DNA from: an uncultured Verrucomicrobiota bacterium
GTDB taxonomy: Bacteria > Verrucomicrobiota > Verrucomicrobiia > Limisphaerales > UBA1319
Length of the DNA: 64,000 bases
Direction of reading: 5' to 3'
NCBI GenBank assembly: GCA_964458325.1
Contig: CAYWIM010000006.1
Location: 9,370 to 73,369, forward strand
Numbering within the stretch: the stretch's first letter is position 1; each line of letters starts with the position of its first letter. A program made the position numbers and the translations under genes. Positions 8,261-27,836 of the stretch are shown piece after piece. The notes under the pieces are model-generated. The model was not told where the DNA came from, did no database searches, and saw nothing but the letters and a program-made list of their open reading frames with translations.

Positions 8261-10426
8261 CTACGGGCCAACCCAGATCAGCCGATAGAACATCCGCGAT
8301 TCGGTGGCGGAGATCGGATAAGGGCTGCTGGCGTCCGGAACGTCGCCATAGGTCCCGTTCACATCCAGAGCCGACTGCAGCCTGAACGCCGGATTGGACC
8401 ATTCCAGTTGGATCCCGCCGCCTGACGACGAGATGATCAGCGGGATCGGATCCGGCGTCGAGGCCAGGACCTCCACCCGGAACCGGGTGAACTCGAATGG
8501 GCTGCCCGCCGTCTCGAGGTTGCCCGCCCGGAACCCGATGCAGTCGAATCGCGGGTAGGCATAGGTGTTGTCCGTGACCGAATGCGACCAGTTGGTGCCG
8601 CCACCCGACACCGCCGTGGTCACTTGCACGGAGGTGAGCGATTTGCGGTCGATGGTGAACTCGAGGGTGTACGGCGTGTCGTTCTGAAATGCGGGTTCGC
8701 CGTTCAGGTTGGCGGGGCCGCCCCCCAGCCCCAGGTAGTTGCCCGTCGTGCCCATCAGGTCGCCCGAGCCCAGATTGTTCCGCGCATAGAGCGAAAACGG
8801 ATTGCCCGAAAACTGGAGGCCGAAGTTCAAGGCCGCCATGTAGCCCCGCACGTTCTGCCCATTGCCGGTGCTCCCCGAGCCGAATCCGTCGTTCAAGACG
8901 CGCGTCCCGCCGTCGGCATAGTCGAAGAAGCCGATGCGGACGCTGCCGCCGCTGCTGGTGATGTTGCTGGCCTTGAACTCGAGCGTGCCCTTGAGCGCAT
9001 GCCCGACGCCCAGATGCACCGGCAGATTCGCGGCCGAATCGTCCGTGAAATAGCCCAGCCATAGAACGGACGAGCCCGATGCGACGGTGCCCATCATCGA
9101 GAGGCCGCTCGAGGCATCGAGCGAGCTGGCGGTGCTGGCGAACCAGACGGAGTTGCTCACATCGTAGGGCAGGTTGTTGTAGAGGTAATCCTGGAACAGG
9201 TCGTCGACCACCAGGCCAGCGGGCGTCGCGGTTGCCGGCGTCACCGCAAGGGTGGCGGCCGACGAGGTTGCCGAAGAGCCGCCGTTGCAGCCGACGGTGA
9301 CGATGGCGCGATATTGGTTGCCGTGATCCGCCGGCGTCGTCGGGCGTGTCCAGTAGGTCGGTGTCGTCCCACCCACCCCATCGGCAACGTTTTCCCACGT
9401 CGCCCCACTGTCGGTCGAGACCTGCCATTGGTAGGCGGGAGAGGATCCGCCGGCGATGACCGAGACGATGGCGCCGATTCCTTCGTTGACCGTCTGGTCG
9501 GCGGGGTGTGTCGAGATGCTGGCCGCCACGCACAGCGCCTGCGTCGAGGTCGCTTCCGCCCAGGTCGTGGCGATCCGGAACTCGTCGAGGAACATGCTGG
9601 CCACGACCTCAGTGCCCACATGGTAGATGAGAAACGAGGAGAGCGAAGGGACGTCCGCGCCCGCCGCCAGAGTGAGCGCCGGCGCCGGCACATCGCCCTC
9701 GGCCGCATTCAGCGATCCGGGGTCCACCCACAAGGCGACTTCGTCGTCATCCACGTCCGGATTGAACTGGTAGCGCAGCACGACCAGGTGCGTGCCGGGC
9801 GCCAAGGGCGTCGTCGAGTCCGCCCCGATAGCGGCATTCGAGCTTTTGCTGATGGCCAGGGTGTTGCCGGGGGTGAGCCAGATGCCCGCCATCGAGCTGC
9901 TGCCCGGGCTGTTGTTGATCACGGGATTGCTGTAATAGTCGAGCTTGGCAAATAGCCGGCTGTCCGTGCCGGAAGGCGCCTGCTGGACGTCCATCAGGAA
10001 TGAGACGTAAGCCCGGCCGCCGCTGATGGCGGGAAACAGGATGCCTCGAGTCCGATTCGCGGTGGTGTTTGCGGTCCGAATATAGAGGCCCAGGTTCGGG
10101 TTGGGATCCTGGTAGAGGCTGGGGTAGGAAAGCGCGGCGGCGCCGCCGACCACCACCGTGCTCCCACCGCCTGCGCTGTTCCCGATGGACCAGATCGTGG
10201 CGGTGTCGCCGTTCCCGAGCCGGCGCGCCCGGTAGGCGCTGCCTCCCGCGGGCACCTCGACGGTTTCATCGGAGGAGTTGGTGTAGGAGCTGGGGAAAGG
10301 CTCGTAGATCGGCAGCGGCGTCTGAGCCTCCGCTCCCGCCCAGCCCAGGGTCGCCAGGGCCACAACGGCTGCCGCGCCGCGGATCGATCGGATGTTCAAA
10401 CACCTAACAGCATTTTGGTGGTTCAT
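8261..10426 (-). CDS. Secreted Ig-domain protein with C-terminal FYR tail
   Basis: Signal peptide ending AEA-Q, Ig I-set-like segment (HPADQTVNEG..YQWQ..YRAIV), tail LQSALDV..Y..MFYRL; RBS GAAGGA before ATG 10426. Confidence 0.75.
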   Translation of the reverse strand: MNHQNAVRCLNIRSIRGAAAVVALATLGWAGAEAQTPLPIYEPFPSSYTNSSDETVEVPAGGSAYRARRLGNGDTATIWSIGNSAGGGSTVVVGGAAALSYPSLYQDPNPNLGLYIRTANTTANRTRGILFPAISGGRAYVSFLMDVQQAPSGTDSRLFAKLDYYSNPVINNSPGSSSMAGIWLTPGNTLAISKSSNAAIGADSTTPLAPGTHLVVLRYQFNPDVDDDEVALWVDPGSLNAAEGDVPAPALTLAAGADVPSLSSFLIYHVGTEVVASMFLDEFRIATTWAEATSTQALCVAASISTHPADQTVNEGIGAIVSVIAGGSSPAYQWQVSTDSGATWENVADGVGGTTPTYWTRPTTPADHGNQYRAIVTVGCNGGSSATSSAATLAVTPATATPAGLVVDDLFQDYLYNNLPYDVSNSVWFASTASSLDASSGLSMMGTVASGSSVLWLGYFTDDSAANLPVHLGVGHALKGTLEFKASNITSSGGSVRIGFFDYADGGTRVLNDGFGSGSTGNGQNVRGYMAALNFGLQFSGNPFSLYARNNLGSGDLMGTTGNYLGLGGGPANLNGEPAFQNDTPYTLEFTIDRKSLTSVQVTTAVSGGGTNWSHSVTDNTYAYPRFDCIGFRAGNLETAGSPFEFTRFRVEVLASTPDPIPLIISSSGGGIQLEWSNPAFRLQSALDVNGTYGDVPDASSPYPISATESRMFYRLIWVGP

Positions 10427-10499
10427 ATAGCATTCCTTCATTTCAGATCGGATTCAATCGTCCCTGGCCGCGGGCGGGCCGCGCCCGCCCGGGGCGCAT

Positions 10500-13191: not shown

Positions 13192-15225
13192 CTACGGCAG
13201 AAGCCGGCCCCGATGGAACTCGCGCGTCAATCCGGAGGCCGCCTCCTGGATCAGGAGCAAGGTGCCGGTCCCATCGGTGAATTCGAGCTCGAGCGAGGGG
13301 AGCCAGGCCGATAGATCCGGGCTTTGTTCGAGCAGGAATTTCTGGTCCGGCTTGCCGCCGAATAGAAACACATGGTGCGCCTCGGTGCGGGCGTAGCGGA
13401 CGAACTCGATCGGGGTCAGGTCGGGCACGACCTGGGCGCGCAGGATCATCCCCTGGACTCCGACCGCGACGAGCTGGCCGCCGGCGGCCGCCGCGCCGAA
13501 CAGCGATTTGCGGGTGAGCGTGCCGGTGCTGGACCAATCGGCCAGGTTGGTGCTGGTGAGGACCGCGCCGCCGGTGCCGACCACAAACCACGTGCCCTCG
13601 ACGAACGCGGCGTCCGTGAGCCACTCGGTGGTGCCGCTGGATCGGGCAGTCCAGTTCGTGGCGTCGGGGCTGGTCCAGAGCGCGCCGTTTTCGCCGACGA
13701 CCAGCAGCACGTCATGGAGGCGGCGCACCTGCCAGAGCCAATCGGTTGTCGGCAGAGCGCGCGATGTCCAGTTGGTCCCGTCGGGGCTTGTCAGCATCGC
13801 GCCGCGATCCCCCACGGCCACCAGCCCGGCCGGGCACGTTTCCATCGACGAAAGAAAGCCGGCGGCCGGCGCGGCCTGCCCGCTCCATTGGACACCGTCG
13901 CGGCTGGTGAGAATCGTTCCGTTCGCGCCGGACGCCAGGAACAGGCCGCCGAAGGCGGTGCAGCCTTGGAGATCGTTGGGGGTGGGCCGCGGCTCGACGG
14001 CCTCCCAGGTCACGCCGTTGGTGCTCCGGATGATCGCCCCGGCATTGCCCACCGCGAAGAGAAGGTTCGTCGTGCCGCCCACCCCCAAGAACACGGTGTT
14101 GGTCACCGAATCCGGGACGATGTCCATGTCCCAATCCACCCCGTTGTCGCTGGTCATCACGGTGCCGCGATCTCCGGCGGCGATGTAGTAGTGCGGGGTG
14201 CGGCGCAAGGCCCAAAGCCATGTGCGAGGCGAATTGCTGGGAACATAGTAGACGAACGGGCTGGTCTCGTTGGTGCGATAGCCTTGGACCCAAAGCCCCG
14301 TCTCCCCGCCAAGCCACACGGAGGCGCCATCCCAGAGCGCGCTGTAATAGCTCCAGACGGGAGGCGGATAGGGCTTGGCGCTGTCCAGTTCGTCCACCCA
14401 GGCGGCGCCGTCCTTTCTGCGCACTTCGGCCTCGCCCGCCAGCCAGGTGGCATGGCTGGCGCCCGCGGCGGCGGAGAGATGATTGGTGGCGCCCGCGGCC
14501 TGCGGCGACCACGAGTTGCCGTTGGCGCTGGTCAGGACCAGGCCGCCGTCGCCGGCAGCCCAGTAGCGGTCCTCGAGCCAGGCGACGCGGTTGAGATGCC
14601 CGGTGACGCCGCTGTTGCGCTTGGTCCACGTGGCGCCGGTCGAGCTGCTCATGATGAACCCGCTCTCTCCCACCGCCACGAAGCCGGACGATCCCCAGGC
14701 AACGCTGCGAAGCCAGGCCGTGTATCCCGTGTTCTTCCGGGTCCAGGCGACGGCGTTGGTGCTGGTATAGACCGCGCCGTTGTCGCCCACGGCCACGACC
14801 AGGCTCGCGGATGCCGCCACGCTCTCGAGCCAGTCGGCCGTGCCGAGGTCGTTCAGGAAGAACTCCGACGGGTCGTCGGAAAACAGGATGGTCCCGCGCT
14901 CGCCGCAGATCACGATGCGCCCGCCCAGAAACGTCACGCCGCGCAGGGATCGGTCGGTGTGGCTGTCGCGGGGCGTCCATGAATCGAGGTCGGTGCTGGT
15001 GAAGATCTGGCCCCGCTCGCCCACCTGGACGGCCAGGCCGCCGGCCCAGGCGATGTCGACGATGTTCGCCCCGTGCGGCGCCGGGTTGGACCATCGCCAC
15101 GACAATGGGTATGCGGCGGAGGAAAGCGCCCAGGCCGCGCTGGCTGCCAGCACGAGCGCGCGGGCCGCCTGGCATTGCGCGACACGGGGGATCAAGCGTT
15201 TCATATGGTGTTTTGGGAATGGCAT
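13192..15225 (-). CDS. Secreted BNR/Asp-box beta-propeller protein with C-terminal tail
   Basis: Signal peptide, many TSxDGxxW/TSTNxxxW repeats, tail LEQSPDLSAW..EFHR; start trimmed from the 881-aa ORF to ATG 15225 (or 15204). Confidence 0.8.
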   Translation of the reverse strand: MPFPKHHMKRLIPRVAQCQAARALVLAASAAWALSSAAYPLSWRWSNPAPHGANIVDIAWAGGLAVQVGERGQIFTSTDLDSWTPRDSHTDRSLRGVTFLGGRIVICGERGTILFSDDPSEFFLNDLGTADWLESVAASASLVVAVGDNGAVYTSTNAVAWTRKNTGYTAWLRSVAWGSSGFVAVGESGFIMSSSTGATWTKRNSGVTGHLNRVAWLEDRYWAAGDGGLVLTSANGNSWSPQAAGATNHLSAAAGASHATWLAGEAEVRRKDGAAWVDELDSAKPYPPPVWSYYSALWDGASVWLGGETGLWVQGYRTNETSPFVYYVPSNSPRTWLWALRRTPHYYIAAGDRGTVMTSDNGVDWDMDIVPDSVTNTVFLGVGGTTNLLFAVGNAGAIIRSTNGVTWEAVEPRPTPNDLQGCTAFGGLFLASGANGTILTSRDGVQWSGQAAPAAGFLSSMETCPAGLVAVGDRGAMLTSPDGTNWTSRALPTTDWLWQVRRLHDVLLVVGENGALWTSPDATNWTARSSGTTEWLTDAAFVEGTWFVVGTGGAVLTSTNLADWSSTGTLTRKSLFGAAAAGGQLVAVGVQGMILRAQVVPDLTPIEFVRYARTEAHHVFLFGGKPDQKFLLEQSPDLSAWLPSLELEFTDGTGTLLLIQEAASGLTREFHRGRLLP

Positions 15226-15242
15226 CCGATGGTTTCGCCGTC

Positions 15243-16709
15243 TCACGAATGGCCTGCTGCCGCCCGCTCGACCGCTGGCGGCGAAACCGTCTCGCGGCCG
15301 TCTCCGACCAATGACTGAGGCAGGATCAGCGCGAACAAGCAGCCGCTCTCCGTGCTGCGCGTCAGCTCGAGCTCGGCGCCGAGGTGCCGCGCCAGTTGCC
15401 GGCTCAGCGCGAGGCCCAGCCCGTTGCCGCCGGGCTTGGTCGAGCGGCATGGCATGAACAAGTTGTCGCGGACCGATGCCGGCAGGCCCGGCCCTTCGTC
15501 CCCCACCTCGCACACCACGCCGCGGCCGGCCGGGCGGATGTCGAGCCGCACGGCTCGGCCGGGCGGAGTGGCCTGGATGGCGTTCCGCAACAGGTTCTCC
15601 AAAATGAGCAAGGCCAGGTTCGCGTCGCGGTTGCTCAGCGCGCCATCGGCCGACCGGCTGGATTCGAGACGGAGGCCCGCCGCCGCCGCGACGGGCTGGA
15701 TCTTGTCCCGGATGATTTGGGCCAGCTCGGCCAGCGACAGCTCGTAGGTCGTCCCCTCGCTCTGCTCCCCGAGGACGCGGACAATCTCGCCGACCATCGC
15801 CTGCATCTTCTCCGTGCCGCGCAGGGCGTCCTTCCACTCGGCATCCTCCCCGGCCCGAGTCGCGACGAAATTCTGGAGGCCGGCCAGCGGGCTGGTCAGG
15901 CCGTGGAGGATGTGGGCGGTGACGGCGCCCAGGGCGGAGGTTTTGGCGGCCAGAGCCAGCTCCTGGTTGGCCCGGCGCAGGTCCGCGGCGTGTTCCTGGA
16001 GCCGCGCATTGATGATCTGCAGCCTCCAGAACGCCCAGCTCAGCGCGAGGGCCATCATGGATCCGCTCAGGATGAATGCCAGGAGCGCCTTCTGGGCCAG
16101 GTGGCGGTTCAGGATCGCCAGCTCGTGCGCGATGCTCCGGCCGTCCTGGATGAGCTCCGCTGCCGCCAGCAGGTTGGTCTGGCCCGGCGCATGCAGCGGG
16201 ATGAGCACCGACAGCAGCGGCACGCCGGCTGCCTCCGCCTCATTCGGCTGCGGGGGCACCAGGAAATGATCGGTGAGCCGGGCCGCAGGCTCGAAGCGGC
16301 TCGAAGGCTCCAGGCGGGCCATCGCCTCCGCTTCCACCCGGGTCAAATCCTTCTCCTTGACCAGCACGGGCAGGGCAGCCACGAATCGCCCTTGGGCGTC
16401 GAACAGCCTTGTCGCCAGCACGCCCTGCCGCAGCCTCGAGAGCCGAAGGATCAGCGCCAGCTGGCCCGAGGCGTCGTCGAGCTGTTGGGCGAGCGCGCCG
16501 GCCGAATCGGCCCCGATCTGTTCGAGCGTGGCGACCTCGCCCAGCACCTCGGCATCCCAGTGGATGATCTGGTGGCCGATGGTGTCCCGCAGCTGCCGGG
16601 CCCCAAAGAAAATCATGCCGCCCAGGATGCAGAGCGCGATGGCGATCACCACCGGCGACAGCCACCGCGACCGGCTCAGTTGTCGTGCCAAAGGCAGTAT
16701 CTTGTCCAT
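15243..16709 (-). CDS. Sensor histidine kinase
   Basis: Two TM helices flanking periplasmic domain, H-box HGLTSPL, N-box NLLRNAIQA, G1 DEGPGL, G2 GNGLGL. Confidence 0.93.
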   Translation of the reverse strand: MDKILPLARQLSRSRWLSPVVIAIALCILGGMIFFGARQLRDTIGHQIIHWDAEVLGEVATLEQIGADSAGALAQQLDDASGQLALILRLSRLRQGVLATRLFDAQGRFVAALPVLVKEKDLTRVEAEAMARLEPSSRFEPAARLTDHFLVPPQPNEAEAAGVPLLSVLIPLHAPGQTNLLAAAELIQDGRSIAHELAILNRHLAQKALLAFILSGSMMALALSWAFWRLQIINARLQEHAADLRRANQELALAAKTSALGAVTAHILHGLTSPLAGLQNFVATRAGEDAEWKDALRGTEKMQAMVGEIVRVLGEQSEGTTYELSLAELAQIIRDKIQPVAAAAGLRLESSRSADGALSNRDANLALLILENLLRNAIQATPPGRAVRLDIRPAGRGVVCEVGDEGPGLPASVRDNLFMPCRSTKPGGNGLGLALSRQLARHLGAELELTRSTESGCLFALILPQSLVGDGRETVSPPAVERAAAGHS

Positions 16710-16731
16710 GCCCGCCTCCGTCGGCTTTCCA

Positions 16732-17868
16732 TCAAAACTCGAAATCGACCCCCGCGCTCGCAGTGTTGGCCCGGTACTGTTCGACCGGCTGGTTGGAGAG
16801 GGACCGCTCGTAATCGTAGGCCGCGTAGATCCGCCAATGTTTCGACAGGCTTTTCTCGCCGCGAACGGTGACGTGGATGCTGGTTCGATGCCGCAGGCGG
16901 GGATCGGCGAGGCTGATGGCCTGGTGGGGGAAATCGTAGTAGGCCAGCGCGCCCTGCACGCTGACGTCCCACCCCGCAGCCCGGTAGCGCAGTTGCTCGG
17001 CGACTCGATACTGCAGATAATCGTAATAGCCGGACCCGTTGTCCTGGTTGTGCTCGAAGCCGCATCGGGTGAGGCTGCGCCACCGGCGTTTCTCGTCCCA
17101 GTTGTGCTGCCAGGAGAGCTCGGCCAGCTGGCTCCAGTACCGCAGGCGCGTCCCGGGAACGGGAGCGCCCGTCGGATCGGTCTGCTCGCGCGAGTCGTAG
17201 GTTTGGGGAAAGGCCTGATAGCTCAAGCCGGCTTCCGATCCGTGGCCGTAGTAGCGGCCGAGCGTGATCCGCGGGCCTGCCTGCCAGTAGTCGTCCAGCG
17301 GCTGGCGAAAATAGTACAGCGAGCCCGAAAGGCTCAGCTCGGCCCACCAGGGCGCCGCATCCCGCCGCACCCCTTCCGTCAGGGTGATGCCATGCCCATG
17401 GACTTGCTGGCGAACCGCCGTGCCGTAAATGGCGGAAACGTCCATCACCTCGTTGATGAACACGTATTGCAGGGCCGAGGTGCTCTTCCATCCCTCGCCC
17501 ATGAACCATCCCAGCTGGCTCGAGACCGCGGCGTTCTGCTCCGCGTCCACGCCGATCGACTCCCGGAAGTAGCGCACGTCGCTGGCGACCGCCATCAGGC
17601 TGAAATCCCAGTTGTTCCACGGGAGGCGGAACAGCATGACGTCGGCGCTGGTCATCTCGAACGCGCTGCTTTGGGGATCGAAGTGGCTCAGCGTCACATT
17701 GTCCTTGTAGCCCGCGCCCACCCGCAGATGCGCCGACCTCTGCCACAGGGAAAACCCTTCCGGCAGCTCGAGCTTCTCGGCGGACACCCGAACGTCATCG
17801 GCGCCCAGGGCGAAGCAGAACAAGAGCGCTCCCAGCGCGCTCTTCCGTTGGCAGCCTCCGAGGTTCAT
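16732..17868 (-). CDS. Outer-membrane beta-barrel protein
   Basis: Signal peptide, alternating aromatic/amphipathic strands, C-terminal ..GVDFEF BAM-type signature; start trimmed to ATG 17868. Confidence 0.7.
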   Translation of the reverse strand: MNLGGCQRKSALGALLFCFALGADDVRVSAEKLELPEGFSLWQRSAHLRVGAGYKDNVTLSHFDPQSSAFEMTSADVMLFRLPWNNWDFSLMAVASDVRYFRESIGVDAEQNAAVSSQLGWFMGEGWKSTSALQYVFINEVMDVSAIYGTAVRQQVHGHGITLTEGVRRDAAPWWAELSLSGSLYYFRQPLDDYWQAGPRITLGRYYGHGSEAGLSYQAFPQTYDSREQTDPTGAPVPGTRLRYWSQLAELSWQHNWDEKRRWRSLTRCGFEHNQDNGSGYYDYLQYRVAEQLRYRAAGWDVSVQGALAYYDFPHQAISLADPRLRHRTSIHVTVRGEKSLSKHWRIYAAYDYERSLSNQPVEQYRANTASAGVDFEF

Positions 17869-17945
17869 GAAAAGAATGCCGCGCCGGCCTGCTTTTGCCG
17901 GCCGGCGCTCGATGGACCTGGATCGGCCCGAATTCATTCCGGTCA

Positions 17946-18572
17946 CTAGCGTCCGCGCGGTCCGCCGGTCCCCGATCCGCCCGAGCCCGTGCCTGGGTTG
18001 GAGACCCGCTCCATGAGGCGCGTGTGATCGCGCAACTGATCGCCCAACCGGGCGCACTGCTCGGCCAATTGCTCGCGCAGCCGGGCCTGCTGCTGCTTCC
18101 ACTGCTCCATCTGCTCCTTCAACTGATCGCGCAGACGCTGGCGCTCCTGCTCGCCCGCGCCGCTCATCTGCTGCTCGATCGTGCGCTGGCGAGTCGTGAA
18201 CGCCTCGCGGTCCTTCTGGAACTGCCGCACCAGCCCCTCGACATCCGCCGGGGTCAGCGGCCCGTGCGGTCGCGGCCCGGGCGGATCAACGCGCGGTCCG
18301 GACGAAGGAGCCACTACGCTGTATCGATTGGTGAACGCCTGTGGCACGGGTGAGTTGGACCATCGCGCCATGTTCGTATACCAGCCAGCGCCAGCTCCAT
18401 TGGGATCCAGATAATGGTTCTGGTAGTTGGTCGAGTAGGCATGCTGGGTGGTGTCAGTGCCATCGTTGGAGCCGCTTCCCGGGCCGGGACCTGCCGCCCT
18501 TGCCGCTGCCGCACCGGCAATGACCACGACTCCAATGGCCCCCACAAAAGCGAGACTTTTTTTCGGTTTCAT
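17946..18572 (-). CDS. Exported coiled-coil protein (Spy/ZraP-like architecture)
   Basis: Signal peptide, low-complexity linker, Q/E/R-rich helical C-terminal half; first gene after sigma54 promoter. Confidence 0.62.
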   Translation of the reverse strand: MKPKKSLAFVGAIGVVVIAGAAAARAAGPGPGSGSNDGTDTTQHAYSTNYQNHYLDPNGAGAGWYTNMARWSNSPVPQAFTNRYSVVAPSSGPRVDPPGPRPHGPLTPADVEGLVRQFQKDREAFTTRQRTIEQQMSGAGEQERQRLRDQLKEQMEQWKQQQARLREQLAEQCARLGDQLRDHTRLMERVSNPGTGSGGSGTGGPRGR

Positions 18573-18625
18573 CAGATTTTCCTTTCGTTTTGCGGGAACC
18601 ACTCCCGCGTCTTGATTTCCTAAAG

Positions 18626-18640
18626 GCAAGACGCGTGCCA
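18626..18640 (-). promoter_or_regulatory. sigma54 -24/-12 promoter
   Basis: Minus strand TGGCAC-GCGTC-TTGC, a perfect consensus 54 nt upstream of ATG 18572. Confidence 0.85.
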
Positions 18641-18727
18641 GGACCCTCGATTATTATTAACTAATTCGCTATCAATTGGATACGCATGTGCAGACGCTCG
18701 TGTCCACCCCCGATCGCCGGCTGGTTT

Positions 18728-18786
18728 CGGGTAATATTCGCCAGACACGAATGCAGGTTGAGCCCTTGGATGGGGAATAATCCCCA
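18728..18786. promoter_or_regulatory. Putative enhancer (UAS) pair
   Basis: TGGGGAATAATCCCCA (18771-18786) and degenerate copy (reverse complement TGGCGAATATTACCCG, 18728-18743), about 90-145 bp upstream of sigma54 site. Confidence 0.6.
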
Positions 18787-18921
18787 GCGTGGAGTGTCTA
18801 CGCGATGATGCAGGCCGGGTCCCTTCACCCTGGCGCTCTGGTCGCGTGACGCTTTCTATCGAGCCCAGATCGGCGGAAGCGGGAACTCCAAACTCGAGCA
18901 GCCGGCCTGGATGGGGCCCGA

Positions 18922-20325
18922 TCATTGGCGGTCGGTCTCCTTTTTATCGAGCCGGTAGCGGAGGTAATCGCGGGGGACGCCCAGGAGCCGCGCCGCCGCG
19001 GACAGGTTGCCTCCGCTCTGCCTCAGCGCGTGTCGAATGATGCGGAGCACGGCCTCTTCCACGGAAAACCCCGATGCCGGAATCACGAATTCCTCGTTGA
19101 ACCAATCGACCGATTTTGGGGGGAGCGCCGTCTGGGGGGCATTCTGCCCGCTGAGGTGCTGGAAATCGAACTCCGTCCCCGATTCGAAGACGACGGCCCG
19201 CTCGAGCTCATGGGCCAATTCGCGGACATTGCCGGGCCAGGGATAGCCCATGAGACGTTGGGCGCCTATCGGCGAGATCGATCGCTTGGGGATTCGATGC
19301 CGGCGGCAGATCTGTTCCAGAAGCTGTTCGGCCAGTCGCAGGATGTCCATGCCGCGCGCGCGCAATGGCGGCAGGCGGACCCGGAACAGATCCAAGCGGT
19401 GGTAGAGATCCTCGCGGAACTGCCGGGCAGCGACCAGCTCGGTCAGGCTCTGGCTGGTGGCGGCGATGAGGCGCACGTCGACCTGGATGGCTGCGTTGCC
19501 GCCGACGCGCCGTATTTTGCAATCTTCGAGCGCAGTCAGCACCTTGGCCTGAAGGGCCAGAGAGAGGCTTGGGAGCTCGTCCAGGAAGAGCGTCCCGCCG
19601 GCGGCCGCCTCGAACAGTCCCATCCGGGCCGTCTTGGCGTCGGTGAACGCGCCGCGCTCGTGGCCGAACAGCTCGGACTCGGCCAGCGTTTCGGGCAGGG
19701 CGGAGCAATTGACCTCGACCAGCGGCTGCGCGGAACGCGGTCCCTGCTGGTGGATCCAGCGCGCGATGGTCGTTTTCCCTGCCCCGGTCTCGCCATGGAT
19801 CAGCACCGGGGGCGGCGTGCCTTCGACCCGCTGGTCGGCCTCGAGGATTTTCTCGAGTTGGCCTTTAACCTCCGCCAAGGCCTCGCCGAAGAAGAATCCC
19901 GCCAGGCCGGTTTCCTCGCGGCGGTGCTCCTCGCGCCGGGCCGACTGCCGCGCGCGCCGCGCCCGCTCGAGCACCAGCGGCAGCTCCATCGGATTGAACG
20001 GCTTGACCAGGTAATCGAGCGCGCCCAGCTTCATCGCCTCCACGACGCTGGGCACGTTGCTGTTGGCGGTCATGATGACGACGCCGACCGCTTTCGAGAA
20101 GACCTTCTCCCGGAGCAGGTCCATTCCCATGCCATCGGGCAGGTTCAGATCCAGGAAGGCGAAATCGAAGTCGAGGTCCCTGGCGAACCGCCGGGCCGCT
20201 CCCAGATCGCCTGCGCTGGTGACGTCCGCGCCAAGTTTCTCGAGCGTCGCCGCAATCTGCCGGCTCAGCAGCGGATCGTCCTCGAGAACCAACACGCTCA
20301 ATCCCGTCAGACTCGATGGCTGCAT
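18922..20325 (-). CDS. NtrC-family sigma54-dependent response regulator
   Basis: REC (LEDD, D in FLDLNLPD, K in YLVKPF), AAA+ GETGAGKT, ESELFGHERGAFTDA, WPGNVREL, Fis-type HTH. Confidence 0.95.
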   Translation of the reverse strand: MQPSSLTGLSVLVLEDDPLLSRQIAATLEKLGADVTSAGDLGAARRFARDLDFDFAFLDLNLPDGMGMDLLREKVFSKAVGVVIMTANSNVPSVVEAMKLGALDYLVKPFNPMELPLVLERARRARQSARREEHRREETGLAGFFFGEALAEVKGQLEKILEADQRVEGTPPPVLIHGETGAGKTTIARWIHQQGPRSAQPLVEVNCSALPETLAESELFGHERGAFTDAKTARMGLFEAAAGGTLFLDELPSLSLALQAKVLTALEDCKIRRVGGNAAIQVDVRLIAATSQSLTELVAARQFREDLYHRLDLFRVRLPPLRARGMDILRLAEQLLEQICRRHRIPKRSISPIGAQRLMGYPWPGNVRELAHELERAVVFESGTEFDFQHLSGQNAPQTALPPKSVDWFNEEFVIPASGFSVEEAVLRIIRHALRQSGGNLSAAARLLGVPRDYLRYRLDKKETDRQ

Positions 20326-20446
20326 CGATTGGATGTTCGTCGAAAAACCGATCCCGTGAAAGCCAAAAGGACAGCACGGCTCCCGCCGGCTGTCCTTGCA
20401 CGATCGAGGTGTTGCTTGCGTTCAACCTGCCCGCGCAATCGCCTGC

Positions 20447-20869
20447 CTATTTCCCGGCGCGCACCACAACGGTGTCCGATCCGGCGAACATTTCACCGTC
20501 TTTGGTCGATCCCGTCAGGGTCAGAATGGCCGAAGGCGGCGCCACCAAGCCCTTGAGCTCGGTGAGGCTGAACTTGGCGACGAGGTTGCCGCAGTCGTCG
20601 GCCTTGGTCGCGCGTGCGGAGAGGATTGCCTGTCCGTTGTTGACATCGAGTTCGACTGAGGCCGTGTCAACCGAGCTGTAAGCCAGGTCGGTATGGACGG
20701 TCATCCAATCGCCGTTGGCGGCCGATTTCATGACCACAGCCGAAGGCGAGCACATGATCTCGACCGATATGTCAGCCTGCGCCTTGAATGGTGCCAGCGC
20801 CAGCAGGAGGGCCGCACACAGTACACCCGCCCAGCGAAGGGGGTGGAGGAAAGTTGAATAGTTATTCAT
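20447..20869 (-). CDS. Small secreted beta-rich hypothetical protein
   Basis: 140 aa, signal peptide ending AQA-D, two Cys in the mature part. Confidence 0.75.
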   Translation of the reverse strand: MNNYSTFLHPLRWAGVLCAALLLALAPFKAQADISVEIMCSPSAVVMKSAANGDWMTVHTDLAYSSVDTASVELDVNNGQAILSARATKADDCGNLVAKFSLTELKGLVAPPSAILTLTGSTKDGEMFAGSDTVVVRAGK

Positions 20870-20923
20870 AGGAGAGAGTTGGTTTTATTGTTCGAGGCCA
20901 TTCGTTGGCCGAGATATCCAGGA

Positions 20924-20938
20924 GCAAGTCGCATGCCC
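20924..20938 (-). promoter_or_regulatory. sigma54 -24/-12 promoter
   Basis: Minus strand GGGCAT-GCGAC-TTGC, 55 nt upstream of ATG 20869. Confidence 0.6.
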
Positions 20939-21106
20939 GGCTCCCAAGCGATGCCGTAAACCGGCAGCTCCCGCAGCATGCGTCCCTTGCAGAAGTCCAG
21001 CGATTCCCTTGATATTTGGGGGCGAATCGCGTGTTCGAGGTCCGAAATGGAACAAGTTCAGGCCGCTTGCGTATCGAGAGGCCACTGGGCCGAAGGAGAG
21101 CCGCGC

Positions 21107-21154
21107 TGGGGATTATTTCCCACCCTTCCCAAGCGTGCTGGGGAAAATTTCCCA
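21107..21154. promoter_or_regulatory. Putative enhancer (UAS) pair between divergent sigma54 promoters
   Basis: TGGGGATTATTTCCCA (21107-21122) and TGGGGAAAATTTCCCA (21139-21154), 32 bp apart; first copy matches the 18771 site at 15/16 as reverse complement. Confidence 0.65.
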
Positions 21155-21373
21155 AAGGAACTTTCTTCGGGCCGCCCAGGGGCCGACAATGGGGTTCACC
21201 ACGAAGGGTTCGAGGAACACGAAGAGATGCGGGGCGGAATGCGGTAGGGAGGCTGGTCCTCGATCCCAGCAGCCTCCGTTGAGCCGGAGGCGTTCCTTGC
21301 GGGGGTAGGTGATCACGGCGGGCGGAAGTGCACACGAAGGAGCGCCGACGTCCTAGGCGGCTTGGCAGCCCTC

Positions 21374-21388
21374 TGGCGCGCAATTTGC
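21374..21388 (+). promoter_or_regulatory. sigma54 -24/-12 promoter
   Basis: TGGCGC-GCAAT-TTGC, 15 nt before cytochrome ATG (very short leader). Confidence 0.62.
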
Positions 21389-21403
21389 TTTAGTCTGTCC
21401 TGA

Positions 21404-23272
21404 ATGAACAATCATCCACCGCTGAGGCGATGGCCCGTCTTGATCTTGCTCGTGGCGTCGGCCCTGCTCGTCAGCGCCGACGGTTTGCCTCTGCCCTCCT
21501 ATCAGTGGCCGGATTTCGTCGGTTCGGCCAACTGTGCCGCCTGTCACACGGGCCTGCAGGACGCGGCGCGGAACGACGTGTCGATCGACACGCACTGGCG
21601 GTCGACGATGATGGCCAACAGCGCCCGGGATCCATTCTGGCAAGCCAAGGTTGCCTCCGAAGTGTCGCGCAACCCGCACCTGCAAAGCGTTATCGAGGCC
21701 AAGTGCGCCACCTGCCACATGCCTTCGGCGAGGACTCAAGCCTTGGGGTTGAGCCTGCCTGTGGCCATCTCCGGCAGCGGCTTCCTCGATCCGGCCAACG
21801 CGCTGCATTCCGTTGCGATGGACGGCGTTTCGTGCGCCATGTGCCATCAGATCGCCGACCAGGCCCTGGGCCAATCCGAATCCTTCAGCGGCGGGTACGC
21901 CGTGGACACCACGACCGCATCGCCTGACCGGCTGATCTACGGCCCGTTCCCTTCGCCATTCACGGCGCAGATGCGCAATAACATCGGGTTCACACCCGTC
22001 CAGGGAATGCATGCCACCAACTCCGCCCTGTGTGGGGTCTGCCATAACTTGTGGACGCCTTACGTGGATGCCGAGGGGATTGTGCGGGGCGAGTTCCCGG
22101 AACAGATGATCTACAGCGAGTGGGAACAGAGCCAATACCGGCGGGCGCCCAATGCACGCCAATGCCAGGATTGCCACATGCCGCCGGCCGTCGGGGGCGT
22201 GAAGCTCTCGAATCGGGGCGGCCCCGGGCTGAACATGCCCGCCCGCAGCCCCTTCGGCCAGCACTTCTTCGTGGGGGCCAACACGCTGTTGCTCGACCTG
22301 TTCACCAACCAGATCGCACCGCTGGCCCTCACTGCTTCCACAGCCCACTTCAGCGCCACCCGGCAGCGCGCCATTGCCCAGCTCGAACAGCAGACGGCCC
22401 GGCTCATGGTGGCCGAGATCGGTGTCGGTTCGAATGAGCTGGCCGTCGCTCTGGTCGTGTCGAACCTCGCCGGGCACAAGCTCCCGAGCGGCTTTCCATC
22501 CCGTCGAGCCTGGCTTCACGTCTGGATTTCGGACGGGCAGGGGGCCGTGTTTTTCGAATCCGGCCGGCCTGCCCCGGACGGATCGATCGCCGGCAACGAT
22601 GCCGACGCCCACCCCGCGCGATGCGAACCGCATCGGCAAGTCATCGATCAGCCCGGCCAGGTGCAGATCTATGAAGCGATTATGCAGGACACCGGCGCCG
22701 CCATCACCCATACCTTGCTGCGCGCGGCCAGCTACCGAAAAGACAACCGGCTGCTGCCCGCTGGATTCGACAAAACGACCGCCGGCCCCGAGATCGTCCC
22801 CACCGCGGATCCCGCCGCGGACGCCGACTTTCAAGGCGGTTCGGACCGGCTGACATACCGCGTGAAGACGGCAGGTCATCCTGGCCCGTTTGTCGTGCGC
22901 GCCGAATTGCTCTACCAAACCCTCGCCCGCGGTTTCGCCGACGATTTGTTCGGCGACACCGGCAGCGCCGCCACCTCGTTTCAGGCCATGTTCGACGCCG
23001 CAGATCGCACGCCAGTCGCCATTGCCCAGGCCGTAGCGAATGTGGATCCTGCCGCCGCCGCCCGGATCGGGTCTCCCGAGCCATTGGCGGATGGCTCGGT
23101 CCGGCTGCCCGTGTTCGCGCCGCTCTCGAGCACGAACCGTGTCGAGACGGCTGCCGACTTCACCGGCTGGGCCACGCTGGCCACGCTGGTCCAAACGAGC
23201 AATCCAAGCTTCCTCCTCGATCCCTCGAGCCGCAATGCCGCTGCCAGGTTCTATCGCCTGCGCGCCCCGTAG
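21404..23272 (+). CDS. Pentaheme cytochrome c with C-terminal FYR tail
   Basis: Signal peptide; five CxxCH motifs (CAACH, CATCH, CAMCH, CGVCH, CQDCH); tail VETAADFTGW..RFYRLRAP. Confidence 0.9.
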   Translation: MNNHPPLRRWPVLILLVASALLVSADGLPLPSYQWPDFVGSANCAACHTGLQDAARNDVSIDTHWRSTMMANSARDPFWQAKVASEVSRNPHLQSVIEAKCATCHMPSARTQALGLSLPVAISGSGFLDPANALHSVAMDGVSCAMCHQIADQALGQSESFSGGYAVDTTTASPDRLIYGPFPSPFTAQMRNNIGFTPVQGMHATNSALCGVCHNLWTPYVDAEGIVRGEFPEQMIYSEWEQSQYRRAPNARQCQDCHMPPAVGGVKLSNRGGPGLNMPARSPFGQHFFVGANTLLLDLFTNQIAPLALTASTAHFSATRQRAIAQLEQQTARLMVAEIGVGSNELAVALVVSNLAGHKLPSGFPSRRAWLHVWISDGQGAVFFESGRPAPDGSIAGNDADAHPARCEPHRQVIDQPGQVQIYEAIMQDTGAAITHTLLRAASYRKDNRLLPAGFDKTTAGPEIVPTADPAADADFQGGSDRLTYRVKTAGHPGPFVVRAELLYQTLARGFADDLFGDTGSAATSFQAMFDAADRTPVAIAQAVANVDPAAAARIGSPEPLADGSVRLPVFAPLSSTNRVETAADFTGWATLATLVQTSNPSFLLDPSSRNAAARFYRLRAP

Positions 23273-23462: not shown

Positions 23463-24806
23463 ATGAGCAGCGATTTACTCGATTTCATACCCGATGGGGT
23501 GTTCACCGTGGATGCCGACTGGCACATCACGCGGTTCAACCGCGCCGCGGAGCAGATCACGGGCATTCGCCAGGAGGAAGCGATCGGGCGGCGCTGCTGC
23601 GACGTGTTCCATGCGAGCATCTGCGAGAGCGCCTGCACGTTGAGGCGGACCCTGGCGACCGGCAGGCCGGTCGTGAACCAGGTGGTGTATATCGTCGATG
23701 CCCACGGGCGGCGGATCCCCATCAGCATCTCGACCGCGGTCCTCCGCGACGCCGGGGGCAAGGTGGCGGGCGGGATTGAATGTTTCCGGGATTTGCGGAT
23801 CGTCGAGGAGCTCCACCGCCAGGCCGAGGCGCAGGATCAGTTCGCCGACATCATCGGCCGCAGCGCGGCGATGCAGCGCCTTTTCGAGCTCCTCCCGGCG
23901 ATCGCCCAGAGCGACAGCACGGTCCTGATCGAAGGGGCCAGCGGCACGGGCAAAGAGCTCTTTGCACGCGCCATCCACAACCTGTCCCGGCGCCGGGAAA
24001 AGAGGTTCGTGGCGGTCAACTGCGGCGCGCTGCCGGACACGCTGCTCGAGTCCGAGCTCTTTGGATACAAGGCCGGCGCGTTTACCGACGCCCGGCGCGA
24101 CAAGCCCGGCCGGTTCGCCCTGGCCGAAGGAGGCACTCTGTTCCTGGACGAGATCGGAGACGTCTCGCCCGCCATGCAGGTGCGCCTGCTCCGGGTCTTG
24201 CAGGAGCGATCCTACGAGCCGCTCGGGTCCGTCGAGCCGGTCCGGGCGGATGTGCGGTTCGTCGCCGCCACCCACCGATCGCTGAGCCAATGGGTGCGCG
24301 AAGGCAAGTTCCGCGAGGATCTGTTCTATCGGATCCACGTCATCCGACTGGAGCTGCCCTCCCTTCGGGATCGCCGCGAGGACATCCCCTTGCTGATCGA
24401 TCGGTTCATCGCGCTCTTCAATCGCCGCCAGGGCAAGGACATCCACGGCGTCTCCGACGATGTCTTGGCCCGGCTCATGGAACACGATTTCCCGGGCAAC
24501 GTGCGCGAACTCGAGAACATCATCGAACACGCCTTCGTGCTCTGCAAGGGCGGCTTGATCAAAATGGCTCACCTGCCCGTCCAATTACGGCCGGCAAGCG
24601 CCGCCCAGCGGGCCGATAAATCCCATCGGATGACGCTCCGCGCGATGGAGGAGATGATGATCCGAGATGCCCTCCGCCGGAGCGATGGCAGTCGTGCCAA
24701 GACAGCTCGCGAGCTGGGCATCGATCCCAGCACTCTGTTCCGAAAGATCCGGTCGATCCGATCGTCCGCGCATCCCCCCGATGCGCCCGAGTCTCCCGCC
24801 GGATAG
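23463..24806 (+). CDS. PAS-domain sigma54 activator (OrpR-like)
   Basis: PAS with RRCCDVFHASICESAC Cys cluster, GASGTGKE, ESELFGYKAGAFTDA, FPGNVREL, HTH; start trimmed to ATG 23463. Confidence 0.92.
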   Translation: MSSDLLDFIPDGVFTVDADWHITRFNRAAEQITGIRQEEAIGRRCCDVFHASICESACTLRRTLATGRPVVNQVVYIVDAHGRRIPISISTAVLRDAGGKVAGGIECFRDLRIVEELHRQAEAQDQFADIIGRSAAMQRLFELLPAIAQSDSTVLIEGASGTGKELFARAIHNLSRRREKRFVAVNCGALPDTLLESELFGYKAGAFTDARRDKPGRFALAEGGTLFLDEIGDVSPAMQVRLLRVLQERSYEPLGSVEPVRADVRFVAATHRSLSQWVREGKFREDLFYRIHVIRLELPSLRDRREDIPLLIDRFIALFNRRQGKDIHGVSDDVLARLMEHDFPGNVRELENIIEHAFVLCKGGLIKMAHLPVQLRPASAAQRADKSHRMTLRAMEEMMIRDALRRSDGSRAKTARELGIDPSTLFRKIRSIRSSAHPPDAPESPAG

Positions 24807-25004: not shown

Positions 25005-26423
25005 TCAACCTATAGCACAGGATCCCGGGATCGCGCCGGAGGCAGGATCCGCTTGGGGGGGGCGTTTCATCCATCGCCAGATCGTGGTGCGGTCTACCCC
25101 CAGCCGCCGGGCGGCCTCGGCGCGGTTCTGGCGGCACTCCGTGAGCAGCCGTTCCAGTTCTTCGCGGGTGGGTGGCTCGACCGAGGATTTCCGTGAAATA
25201 GGCTCGAGCAGCGCGCTCTCCTTCGGATCGGACTTGCGGCACAGCTGTTCCCGGAGATGCGTCAAGCGGATCTCCACCGGGAGGTCGAACAAGCCGATCT
25301 CTGTGCCCGTGCAGGTGACAAAGGCGTGTTCGATGGCGTTTTCCAACTCCCGCACGTTGCCCGGCCAGCAGAAGTCCATCAGAATGCGGCGGACATCCGC
25401 GGACAGCGCCTGGATTGTCTTGCCGGTCTGGCGGTTGAAAATCTCCATGAAATGCTGGGCCAGCAAGAGAATATCGGTGCCGCGCTCGCGCAAGGGAGGC
25501 AGGTGGATCGGAAAGACGTTCAGGCGGTAGAACAAGTCGGCCCGAAACCGCCCCGCCTCGACCAACCCGTGCAGATCCCGGTGCGTGGCGGTGATGATCC
25601 GGACATCCGCGCGGCGGGTTTGGTTCTCTCCGAGCCGCTCGAATTCGCGGTGCTGGACGACTCGCAGCAGCTTGACTTGCATGAGCGGGCTCAAGTCGCC
25701 GATCTCGTCGAGCATCAAGGTGCCGCGATGCGCCATTTCGAATCGCCCCGGCTTGTCTTTGGCAGCGCCCGTGAATGCGCCTTTGGCGTGCCCGAACAGC
25801 TCGCTCTCGAGCAGAGTCTCCGGCAAGGCGGCGCAATTGAGTTTGACCATGGGGCCGCGGGAGCGGCGGCTCCTTTCGTGGATCTCTTCCGCCACCAGCT
25901 CCTTGCCCGTGCCGGTCTCCCCAACAATCAAAATGGTCGAGTCGGACTCGGCGGCCAGCCGGATGCGATCACGCACCTCCTCCATCGCCGCGCTCTTGCC
26001 CACCAGCTTGCCGGCCGCTGCTTTTTCCGCGGAATGCGCTTGCAGCCGCGCCAGCCGGCTCTCGAGCGCTTTCAAGGGGCGCAAGTCGCTGAAAGTCAGA
26101 ACGCTGCCCATGAGGCATCCGTCATCGCCGACGAGAGGAGAGGTTGCTTTCAAGACCGGCACGCGGCCGCCATCGCACCGTTCGATGCGGCACTCCTCCA
26201 AACGCGGGATCGTCAATGCCAGGCCGATGGGCGCCTTCGAAGAACCGTAGACGCGATGGCAGTCAGCATGGAGCAAACCAATGTCATGACCCGTGACCTC
26301 GATGGCCCGATAACCCGTGAGGATTTCCATGGCCTGATTCCATGCTTGAATGACCGAATGGCGGTCGACGACCACCAGGCCGTGCGGCAGGCTTTCGATG
26401 ATGGTCTGCCAATTCAAGTTCAT
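25005..26423 (-). CDS. PAS-domain sigma54 activator
   Basis: PAS N-terminus, GETGTGKE, ESELFGHAKGAFTGA, WPGNVREL, HTH. Confidence 0.93.
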   Translation of the reverse strand: MNLNWQTIIESLPHGLVVVDRHSVIQAWNQAMEILTGYRAIEVTGHDIGLLHADCHRVYGSSKAPIGLALTIPRLEECRIERCDGGRVPVLKATSPLVGDDGCLMGSVLTFSDLRPLKALESRLARLQAHSAEKAAAGKLVGKSAAMEEVRDRIRLAAESDSTILIVGETGTGKELVAEEIHERSRRSRGPMVKLNCAALPETLLESELFGHAKGAFTGAAKDKPGRFEMAHRGTLMLDEIGDLSPLMQVKLLRVVQHREFERLGENQTRRADVRIITATHRDLHGLVEAGRFRADLFYRLNVFPIHLPPLRERGTDILLLAQHFMEIFNRQTGKTIQALSADVRRILMDFCWPGNVRELENAIEHAFVTCTGTEIGLFDLPVEIRLTHLREQLCRKSDPKESALLEPISRKSSVEPPTREELERLLTECRQNRAEAARRLGVDRTTIWRWMKRPPQADPASGAIPGSCAIG

Positions 26424-26511
26424 CGATCGCCATCAAGCCTACACGGAGATCCGGCGTTCGTCGAGTGGGCCGGGCTTGCTGTTTCCAGCCTGCGCGAAGG
26501 CAGATAACCGC

Positions 26512-26546
26512 GCGTTGCAGGCAACGCTGCATGCAACGGTGCAACC
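26512..26546. promoter_or_regulatory. TGCA/GCAAC-rich putative enhancer
   Basis: GCGTTGC-AG-GCAACGC inverted repeat followed by TGCATGCAAC and TGCAACC, about 140-170 bp upstream of sigma54 site. Confidence 0.4.
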
Positions 26547-26682
26547 GGGCAGAGCGCCGTGAACCCTCGAGCGCACAACCGGGCAGACAGGTTGCGCGCT
26601 CCTGTTTTCGGCAGGCATTTTCCACGATAATCGACGTATTTCACTCTCTCCGCCAACCGCGCCCCCGATGTGATCCCAAGGT

Positions 26683-26697
26683 TGGCATGGCACTTGC
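26683..26697 (+). promoter_or_regulatory. sigma54 -24/-12 promoter of trx-hdr operon
   Basis: TGGCAT-GGCAC-TTGC, 14 nt before ATG 26712. Confidence 0.78.
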
Positions 26698-26711
26698 CTA
26701 TCGAGATTGCG

Positions 26712-27092
26712 ATGAACCGAAGCAGTGAGTCAGAAACCCTTCACGTGGTTGAACTCGGCCCCGCGGAGTTGGATGCCTTCATCCGGGTTGGTGTTGTGCT
26801 GGTCGATTTCTGGGCGCCGTGGTGCGGCCCATGTCGCATGCAGGCGCCGGTGCTCGAGCAGGCAGCGATCGCCCTGGCGCAACGGGCCCGGGTGGGCAAG
26901 GTCAATGTGGACGAGCATCCCCAGATCGCCCAGCGGTATCGGATCGCCGGGATTCCTACCTTGCTGCTTTTCAAGGAGGGCCGCCTGGTTCGCCAGCTTG
27001 TCGGGGTCCAATCTGCCTCCGTTCTGATCTCCGCTCTCGAATCCCTGGTCGAGTCAACGCCGAATGAGTCAGTCAACCCATCCCAACCATGA
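26712..27092 (+). CDS. trxA: Thioredoxin
   Basis: [20 protein letters not shown] motifs. Confidence 0.93.
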
Positions 27093-27832: not shown

Positions 27833-27836
27833 CCGT

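Follow-up and report, generated by a model that had tools for sequence, protein, structure and literature searches.

The question raised by this locus is how a group of genes for envelope proteins, together with a divergent gene for a multiheme cytochrome, is controlled in an uncultured Verrucomicrobiota bacterium. The DNA analyzed is a stretch of 64 kb (designated as the window; all coordinates refer to its full length), and its initial annotation had proposed a local sigma-54 regulon in which a palindrome, TGGGGA-W4-TYCCCA, serves as the enhancer. Our analysis indicates that the locus is likely a positively autoregulated, sigma-54-dependent two-component module, conserved as a Verrucomicrobiota cassette with the gene order regulator, helical periplasmic protein, 16-strand barrel, histidine kinase, and double beta-propeller, with or without a gene for a small secreted protein in front. 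The regulator gene itself is probably part of the circuit, which would then activate its own expression; this point was not in the initial annotation.

The G+C content of the region is approximately 65%. Six genes run on the minus strand from 20869 to 13192. A 140-residue secreted beta-rich protein (20447..20869, described from its translation) lies upstream of the gene for an NtrC-family response-regulator enhancer-binding protein (18922..20325, from Pfam and sequence). The first gene of the following operon encodes an exported protein with a helical C-terminal half (17946..18572, from translation and ortholog alignment). It is followed by a 16-strand outer-membrane beta-barrel (16732..17868, AlphaFold2 model), a sensor histidine kinase (15243..16709, Pfam HATPase_c and hydropathy analysis), and, as the last gene, an exported double seven-bladed beta-propeller of 677 residues (13192..15225, AlphaFold2 model). 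On the plus strand, an exported pentaheme c-type cytochrome is encoded divergently (21404..23272, CXXCH motifs). The gene types named in the initial annotation (exported coiled-coil, outer-membrane barrel, propeller, small secreted protein, and pentaheme cytochrome) were thus recovered by structure prediction, translation, and CXXCH motifs, and the Pfam domains and hydropathy agree with its placement of a cognate NtrC regulator and histidine kinase inside the cluster.

A pattern search of the window with TGGGGAWWWWTYCCCA gave exact matches at 18771-18786, 21107-21122, and 21139-21154. With up to one mismatch to TGGGGA-W4-TYCCCA, six matches were found (both strands counted) against 0.07 expected (0 of 100 shuffles). 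A fourth copy at 18728-18743 (CGGGTAATATTCGCCA) has three mismatches to the pattern. The four copies form two pairs spaced 43 and 32 bp, as had been described, with three strong members and one weak one. The upstream activating sequence (UAS) pair between the regulator and the helical-protein gene consists of a proximal weak site (18728..18743), centered 97 bp 5' of the -24 GG (approximately -121), and a distal perfect palindrome, TGGGGAATAATCCCCA (18771..18786), at 140 bp (approximately -164). The other pair lies between the divergent genes. Measured to the -24 GG of the small-protein gene, the centers of its sites at 21107..21122 and 21139..21154 are at 178 and 210 bp; measured to that of the cytochrome gene, they are at 261 and 229 bp. 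These distances fit the range of 90–270 bp given previously, and the reported 15/16 identity of the 18771 and 21107 copies holds when the former is read as its reverse complement.

For an independent ranking of these sites, a position weight matrix was built only from the sites of six other loci (L002, L003, L005, L006, L082, and L083), the window and its near-identical relatives being excluded. The top scores of this matrix over the window were 23.3 (21139), 22.0 (18771), 21.6 (21107), and 15.6 (18728), apart from an overlapping shifted register of the 21139 site (16.1); the next independent site scored 12.0 and is intragenic. The 18728 copy is the fourth-best distinct site of the window, and its position is conserved in other genomes. 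Because the ortholog-only matrix ranks it among the top four, the weak fourth copy is taken on this comparison to be real. The motif consensus is TTGGGGAATATTCCCCAA, with a length of 16–18 bp. Full-text literature searches returned no publication on the present system, and the operator sequence is undescribed as far as the literature searched shows.

The three annotated -24/-12 elements were found at the described places in the correct orientation. The element of the coil-barrel-kinase-propeller operon (P_coil, TGGCACGCGTCTTGCC, 18625..18640, minus strand) has its C of the -12 motif 54 nt before the ATG, and that of the small-protein gene, and probably also of the regulator gene (P_small, GGGCATGCGACTTGCT, 20923..20938, minus strand), 55 nt before the ATG. 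The candidate element of the cytochrome gene (P_cyt, TGGCGCGCAATTTGCT, 21374..21389, plus strand) predicts a transcription start near 21400, which leaves 4 nt to the ATG; the predicted starts of P_coil and P_small are near 18614 and 20912. Each of the three is followed within 15–55 nt by the start of the gene that it faces, and its GG and GC are exactly 10 bp apart, as in TGGCAC-N5-TTGCW. P_coil and P_cyt are the only matches with at most one mismatch to the extended consensus TGGCACGNNNNTTGCW in the whole window (0.69 expected), and loose matches with up to two mismatches are not enriched there (27 against 27.3 expected). The informative evidence for sigma-54 is thus the strict matches together with their position, and loose matches are uninformative. 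No rpoN gene was identified in the window. Two of the three promoters, P_coil and P_small, are conserved in orthologous loci.

Orthologs of the regulator were searched for in genome and metagenome collections, which gave nine loci (L001–L006 and L081–L083) at 64–91% identity; the next sequences were at 40% or less. All named orthologs carry a Verrucomicrobia label. Searches with the outer-membrane protein and the propeller added L164–L169. L001 is a close relative of the window (91% identical). The order regulator, helical protein, barrel, kinase, and propeller is kept in every locus that is long enough, even at 37% identity of the barrel, and the propeller is present in every cassette locus. 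A site pair and a -24/-12 element lie between the regulator and the helical-protein genes in nine of these loci (L001, L002, L003, L082, L083, L164, L165, L167, and L169), and a -24/-12 element was found at the P_coil position in 11 of the 11 other loci examined. A gene occupies the small-protein position upstream of the regulator in seven loci (L001, L002, L005, L081, L082, L164, and L167), with sequence similarity to the small protein shown for the first five. Wherever this gene is present, another pair of palindromes and another -24/-12 element lie upstream of it, and P_small is kept as TGGCAT-N5-TTGC[GA] or similar in L002, L005, L082, L164, and L167.

The distances within these arrangements are nearly constant. 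Among the 10 loci with a detectable site pair at P_coil, the pair spacing is 41–45 bp and the proximal center is 93–97 bp from the -24 GG in nine; L164 is the exception with 84 bp. At P_small the spacing is 31–33 bp and the distance 176–180 bp in seven of seven loci. The intergenic DNA is unalignable between the more distant loci, yet the same arrangement of sites and promoter is present; that the distances stay constant while the sequence has diverged is a strong argument for function. Pair spacings of about 3 or 4 helical turns place both dimers on one face of the DNA. Such same-face spacing is expected for the cooperative assembly of NtrC-type activators, as for NtrC at glnAp2. With the same matrix, loci with regulator orthologs contain sites scoring 20–25, and approximately 2 Mb of loci around non-orthologous enhancer-binding proteins and cytochrome homologs contain no site of at least 20 (maximum 19.5). 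By these comparisons the layout is conserved across about ten Verrucomicrobiota lineages, and it is well supported that the palindromes behave as enhancer sites for sigma-54 promoters. Conservation of the motif in orthologous loci had been set beforehand as a test that could refute the proposal; the motif passed it, as the letters of the sites, their arrangement in pairs, the spacing within a pair, and the distance to the -24 element are all retained.

The regulator consists of a receiver domain (Response_reg, 2.4e-20), an AAA+ domain (Sigma54_activat, 1.3e-59) with the loop GAFTDA in the place of the GAFTGA type, and a Fis-type helix-turn-helix (HTH_8, 8.4e-9), and it thus has the NtrC-family architecture. 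Its bit scores are below the equivalog cut-offs of NCBIfam for AtoC (320 vs 714), NtrC (306 vs 559), PrsR (284 vs 503), and ZraR (276 vs 760), and none of the named equivalogs AtoC, NtrC, ZraR, PrsR, GlrR, and NtrX was reached. The best NCBIfam models for the kinase (AtoS, PrsK, and ZraS) were likewise far below cut-off. The regulator and the kinase form a distinct orthologous group. The recognition helix of HTH_8, LLGVPRDYLRYRL, is nearly invariant among the loci with a TGGGGA-type site. L165 and L169 have a variant half-site, TGGGAAC.., with an altered recognition helix (PRDF[IV]RYRLG instead of PRDYLRYRL); this is consistent with co-variation of helix and site and lends weak support to binding by the regulator, as it may reflect a single evolutionary event. 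Among enhancer-binding proteins, the motif co-occurs only with orthologs of the 18922-20325 regulator, and we infer that this regulator is the protein that binds the palindromes.

In the proposed mechanism, the kinase and the exported double propeller would sense an envelope or extracytoplasmic cue, probably jointly, and the kinase would then phosphorylate the NtrC-type regulator. Regulator dimers would occupy the 16–18 bp palindromes, paired on one helix face about 3 or 4 turns apart. The bound regulator would oligomerize, reach the sigma-54 holoenzyme at the -24/-12 element by looping, and open the promoter with ATP. P_coil, with sites near -121 and -164, would drive the helical protein, barrel, kinase, and propeller. 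P_small, with sites near -202 and -234, would drive the small protein, with probable read-through into the regulator gene. The divergent cytochrome gene of this lineage has the third -24/-12 element and may share the site pair of P_small. The analysis itself shows the sequence elements with their statistics, conservation, and geometry, as well as the domain content, two predicted folds, and the gene fusions; binding of the regulator to the sites, transcription starts, operon structure, signal, and physiological role are given here as we infer them.

Several points count against this account. The 18728 copy is too weak to stand alone. L006 and L166 have a single recognizable site each, located at the position of the distal copy (130 and 141 bp). 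L004 is an exception to the conserved gene order: its regulator is 65% identical, but the next gene encodes an unrelated response regulator, and the cassette and the motif are both missing from the surroundings. Co-transcription of the small gene and the regulator gene is uncertain because of a weak terminator-like hairpin 3' of the small gene (20388-20372). The functional claims on the circuit, finally, are comparative.

Other explanations of the palindromes were weighed against the same data. They could be real enhancer sites that are bound by a different protein, since the window encodes three enhancer-binding proteins within 8 kb. The initial annotation did not mention two of these, both PAS-domain enhancer-binding proteins near the cytochrome gene: one (~23463-24806, plus strand) directly follows that gene on the same strand, which is a natural place for a cytochrome regulator, and the other (~25005-26423) is on the minus strand. 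An ortholog of the PAS proteins was found only in L001, and none is present in the flanks of L002, L003, L006, L082, L083, and L164–L169, where the motif and its geometry nevertheless persist beside the response-regulator orthologs. In addition, the recognition helices of the PAS proteins are unlike that of the response regulator, and the 25005-26423 gene faces a sigma-54 promoter of its own (26683-26698) with an upstream repeat of the GCAAC/GTTGC type. Binding by a PAS protein is accordingly improbable. It is highly improbable that the palindromes act as hairpins in RNA, be it as terminators or as processing sites, or that they stem from a dispersed repeat element. The 18771 copy does lie 136 nt after the stop codon of the regulator gene and could form a 6-bp hairpin (-10.3 kcal/mol), but its stability is no better than that of shuffled sequences (z = -0.64), no U-tract follows, and the 21107/21139 pair sits between divergent genes. 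Across lineages it is the sequence TGGG..CCCA that is conserved, without covariation; weak copies such as TGGCGAATATTACCCG are unable to pair, and the sites keep a constant distance to the -24 element. Rfam gave no match either, and the assignment as terminators or structured RNA was rejected for want of a U-tract, excess stability, and an Rfam family. Against a repeat element, high-scoring copies in the window and approximately 2 Mb of other loci are restricted to two kinds of position.

A more serious alternative concerns the extent of the circuit. Only P_coil and P_small may belong to it, with P_cyt being non-functional or the target of another activator and the cytochrome gene a mere neighbor; we give this reading somewhat less than an even chance. 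P_cyt was found only in the window and the near-identical L001 and so has no independent conservation, its predicted leader of approximately 4 nt lacks a ribosome-binding site, and cytochrome homologs elsewhere are unlinked to the cassette, all of which speaks against a role of the cytochrome. Outside the window and its 91%-identical relative there is no such linkage; in L002, L005, and L082 an ATP-binding cassette (ABC) transporter gene takes the place of the cytochrome gene upstream of the small-gene site pair. The homologs P0002 and P0006 lie in unrelated contexts that lack the motif, for which reason the cytochrome was rejected as a conserved member of the regulon. The sites are also farther from P_cyt (229 and 261 bp) than from the conserved promoters, and another inverted repeat, GCCTCCG-N6-CGGAGGC (21272-21291), lies about 95 bp 5' of the P_cyt -24 element. 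This is the distance of the proximal site at the helical-protein promoter, with a different sequence; the repeat could be a chance occurrence (7-bp arms in GC-rich DNA) or the site of another activator. On the other side, TGGCGCGCAATTTGCT is one of only two such close matches in 128 kb of searched strand, and P_cyt shares its intergenic region with the site pair and faces the cytochrome gene. Enhancer sites commonly serve divergent promoters. Judged by the signal peptides of homologs, the annotated ATG of the cytochrome gene is the correct start. The chances that the cytochrome belongs to the regulon are thus roughly even. The extracellular-redox response suggested in the initial annotation finds no comparative support, as the cytochrome is linked to the cassette in one lineage only.

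The cytochrome itself has a signal peptide and five CXXCH motifs (residues 44, 101, 144, 210, and 254), as expected for a multiheme protein; its match to the MtrC/MtrF domain is below cut-off (26.5 vs 30 bits). It belongs to a very large, highly conserved, and apparently uncharacterized family with more than 7,500 homologs, which are approximately 50% identical across Verrucomicrobiota, Anaerolineae, Desulfobacterales, Nitrospirota, and Acidobacteriota, in which the heme-free C-terminal half (~300 residues) is also conserved. The protein of the window ends in a ..RFYRLRAP domain. Members from Verrucomicrobiota and Pontiellaceae carry such a C-terminal ..RFYRL..P domain, and those of other phyla lack it.

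Hydropathy analysis of the kinase predicts membrane-spanning segments at residues 17–35 and 209–227 around a periplasmic loop of about 170 residues, and HATPase_c was matched at 1.3e-16. Its gene is 17 nt from that of the propeller. The AlphaFold2 model of the latter (mean predicted local distance difference test score, pLDDT, 93.2; predicted template modeling score 0.87) consists of two seven-bladed propellers and a C-terminal beta-sandwich (residues ~605–677), and the protein ends in ..REFHRGRLLP. In Foldseek searches, the best E-values after the repetitive propeller 2ymu were to BT4663/BT4673 (6e-16 to 1e-13), which are periplasmic sensor domains of hybrid two-component systems in Bacteroides. 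Kinase and propeller form one polypeptide of 1130–1178 residues in five clusters (P0241, P0242, P0244, P0322, and P0335), joined by a linker with a hydrophobic segment preceded by basic residues. One fused gene lies in the same cassette on 14 contigs, which come from different assemblies. The topology of the fusions (loci L167–L169) is unusual in that the kinase domain is cytoplasmic and the domain C-terminal to it extracytoplasmic. Because it is fused to the kinase in five clusters, the propeller probably acts with the kinase as an extracytoplasmic co-sensor and is less likely to be a surface-protein output, and the circuit would then largely control itself and the barrel, helical, and small proteins. 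The "tailed beta-propeller" had previously been listed among the surface targets; as a double propeller with kinase-fused relatives, it is more likely to be part of the sensor. Two observations tell against the co-sensor assignment: the template modeling (TM) score to BT4663 is only 0.34, with higher values for generic WD40 double propellers (0.5–0.6), and the linker is short and signal-peptide-like in three of the five fusions.

The barrel was modeled with 16 strands (pLDDT 91.4). Its signal peptide, even strand number, and aromatic C-terminal residue (..VDFEF) are those of outer-membrane beta-barrels. Foldseek returned only generic matches (BcsC, porins, and PgaA; TM scores 0.4–0.5), and an attempt at finer classification gave nothing beyond generic barrels of 16–18 strands. 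The family has approximately 170 homologs, of which every one with a named source is labeled Verrucomicrobiota, and no Pfam model covers it. The N-terminal part of the helical protein is rich in Gly and Pro, the helical C-terminal part (..QFQxDRxAF..EQxRQxLRxQL..) is conserved, and its orthologs share a stretch, [AT]TxEQRExLR, that resembles LTXXQ. No match to LTXXQ or Metal_resist was obtained with a six-ortholog profile against the PDB or with each member against Pfam; SHERP, stathmin, apolipoprotein, and OmpH appeared at E values of at least 0.05. A relationship to ZraP, CpxP, or Spy was rejected, as the signal was coiled-coil noise only, and is kept as an analogy. One ortholog (L003, 6895-7476) contains 16.6% Met and 19% Gln (MGGTNTMGG.. 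repeats and MQQMMQKMQ..), and in L167 the cassette has a NosL gene nearby. A link to copper or other metals was rejected as a family feature because the other ten orthologs have 1–4% Met. The small 140-residue protein had no family or PDB match. A match to LptE (22 vs 23 bits, below threshold) came from one ortholog with a doubtful called start and was not trusted.

The circuit logic is conventional and resembles that of known two-component systems with an enhancer-binding protein and autoregulation, such as NtrBC and ZraPSR; in itself it opens no new question. In the NtrB/NtrC system of enteric bacteria, glnAp2 has paired palindromes of 16–17 bp, about 3 turns apart and more than 100 bp upstream of the -24/-12 element. 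The present system is similar in its receiver, AAA+, and Fis-type regulator, in its paired palindromes, and, probably, in the regulator genes being activated by their own product. It differs in the half-sites (TGGGG/CCCCA instead of TGCAC/GTGCA), in its kinase, which is a membrane sensor with a periplasmic domain whereas NtrB is cytoplasmic, in its predicted targets, which are envelope proteins and not nitrogen assimilation genes, and in the regulator, which falls short of the NtrC cut-off as given above. The initial annotation had compared the locus with ZraSR/ZraP and PrsK/PrsR. The shared logic stands; membership in either group does not, as the NCBIfam cut-offs were missed and neither ZraP likeness nor PEP-CTERM features were found. 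In ZraPSR of E. coli and Salmonella, too, a sigma-54 two-component system induces its own kinase and regulator along with a helical accessory protein of the periplasm, and the enhancer sites are next to the regulator gene. Here, the scores to ZraR (276 vs 760 bits) and ZraS (65 vs 479 bits) are low, the helical protein lacks a match to ZraP, CpxP, or Spy, and an outer-membrane barrel and a double propeller are added.

PrsK/PrsR of the XrtA/PEP-CTERM system likewise combines an NtrC-type pair with secreted proteins that share a C-terminal tail, but the scores are 284 vs 503 bits for PrsR and 70 vs 300 bits for PrsK. The tails of the present proteins (..RFYRLRAP and ..REFHRGRLLP) are the ends of beta-sandwiches of about 75 residues, with neither a PEP motif nor a hydrophobic transmembrane helix, and no exosortase was seen in the window; the locus therefore lacks the features of PEP-CTERM/exosortase sorting. 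A further comparison is with BT4663/BT4673 (PDB 4a2l, 4a2m, and 3va6), which also have two seven-bladed propellers and a small beta-sandwich coupled to a histidine kinase. In the present system the coupling is by operon, and by fusion in five relatives. The differences are the TM score of 0.34, the absence of a Reg_prop or Y_Y_Y match in Pfam, so that the features of the hybrid sensors are missing, a propeller that is separate or C-terminal after an extra hydrophobic segment and not between the membrane helices of the kinase, and an output through a sigma-54 activator encoded separately, where the hybrid systems have a fused AraC domain.

The intergenic regions of the loci contain additional elements. 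A stem-loop in the 5' untranslated region of the coil operon (GCGGGAGTGGTTCCCGC, 18592..18608, minus strand) starts approximately 6 nt after the predicted transcription start. It recurs as GCGGGA-N5-TCCCGC almost letter for letter in L001, L003 (GCGGGAGATGTTCCCGC), L164 (GCGGGAGCGAATCCCGC), and L167. The leader around it has diverged in the lineages that keep it, and other lineages have a different hairpin in the same place. The stem-loops fold at -10 to -12 kcal/mol each, which is individually not significant, and could be a stabilizer of the mRNA or a further protein-binding site. In L167, an insertion of about 350 bp (~2690-3040) with terminal inverted repeats of about 35 bp (CCCCTAGTGTGGTGTCCCTCAAATGGGTGGACATTCG ... 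reverse complement) separates the stop codon of the regulator gene from the palindrome pair. It resembles a miniature transposable element and leaves the palindromes and their distance to the promoter untouched. In L003, arrays of an 8-nt repeat (GTTGAAGC) flank the stop codon of the regulator gene on both sides.

Similar C-termini occur on four large secreted proteins of the window: 8261-10441 (minus strand, ..MFYRLIWVGP), the propeller 13192-15225 (minus strand, ..REFHRGRLLP), the cytochrome 21404-23272 (plus strand, ..RFYRLRAP), and 45029-48532 (minus strand, ..QFFRAVMAE). In the propeller model the tail motif forms the final strand of the beta-sandwich, which comprises about 75 residues. 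The pairwise similarity of the propeller and cytochrome tails is not significant (E = 3.3), with only the ..[FY][YFH]R.. ending shared; the tail may be a lineage-specific sorting or anchoring domain. Genes of a MacB-type ABC transporter (ABC_tran, FtsX/MacB_PCD, and a periplasmic adaptor) recur beside the cassette or a cytochrome homolog (L002, 8181-8921; L161, 3539-8004; L167, 9708-13503), and an unannotated protein of approximately 330–345 residues, plus NosL in L167, recurs in these neighborhoods. This recurrence hints at a loose functional neighborhood.

A second sigma-54 unit is present in the window at 25005-32539. Its promoter (TGGCATGGCACTTGCC, 26683-26698) is approximately 15 nt 5' of a gene for a thioredoxin-like protein (WCGPC), downstream of which lie MvhD/FlpD-like, HdrA-like, and Fe-S genes. 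The gene for the PAS enhancer-binding protein (25005-26423) runs divergently from this unit, and the upstream repeats of the promoter (26505-26600) are of the GCAAC/GTTGC type together with a duplicated CAACCGGGCAGA. A protein of 1532 residues (2642-7240, plus strand) has BadF/BcrA-type ATPase domains and DUF2229 (coenzyme A-enzyme activase). Together with the Hdr-like cluster it suggests an anaerobic lifestyle of the organism.

Experimental work on transcriptional regulation in Verrucomicrobiota is scarce. The locus offers a testable pair of regulator and operator, with an operator of 16–18 bp, two promoters of fixed geometry, and about ten natural variants, which makes it useful in the annotation of the sigma-54 regulons of Verrucomicrobiota and as a part for genetic constructs. 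A wider and tentative reading is that the cassette is an undescribed trans-envelope sensory device, widespread in Verrucomicrobiota, in which a barrel channel, the helical protein, and a propeller receptor would feed the kinase and, through it, a self-amplifying sigma-54 activator; the propeller may be free or fused to the C-terminus of the kinase via an extra membrane segment. If this is true, the genes called targets would mostly be the sensor itself, and the device would be a functional analogue of the glycan-sensing hybrid two-component systems of Bacteroides, built from separate parts. The sensor architecture suggested by the kinase-propeller fusions could account for the detection of extracellular cues by these polysaccharide degraders.

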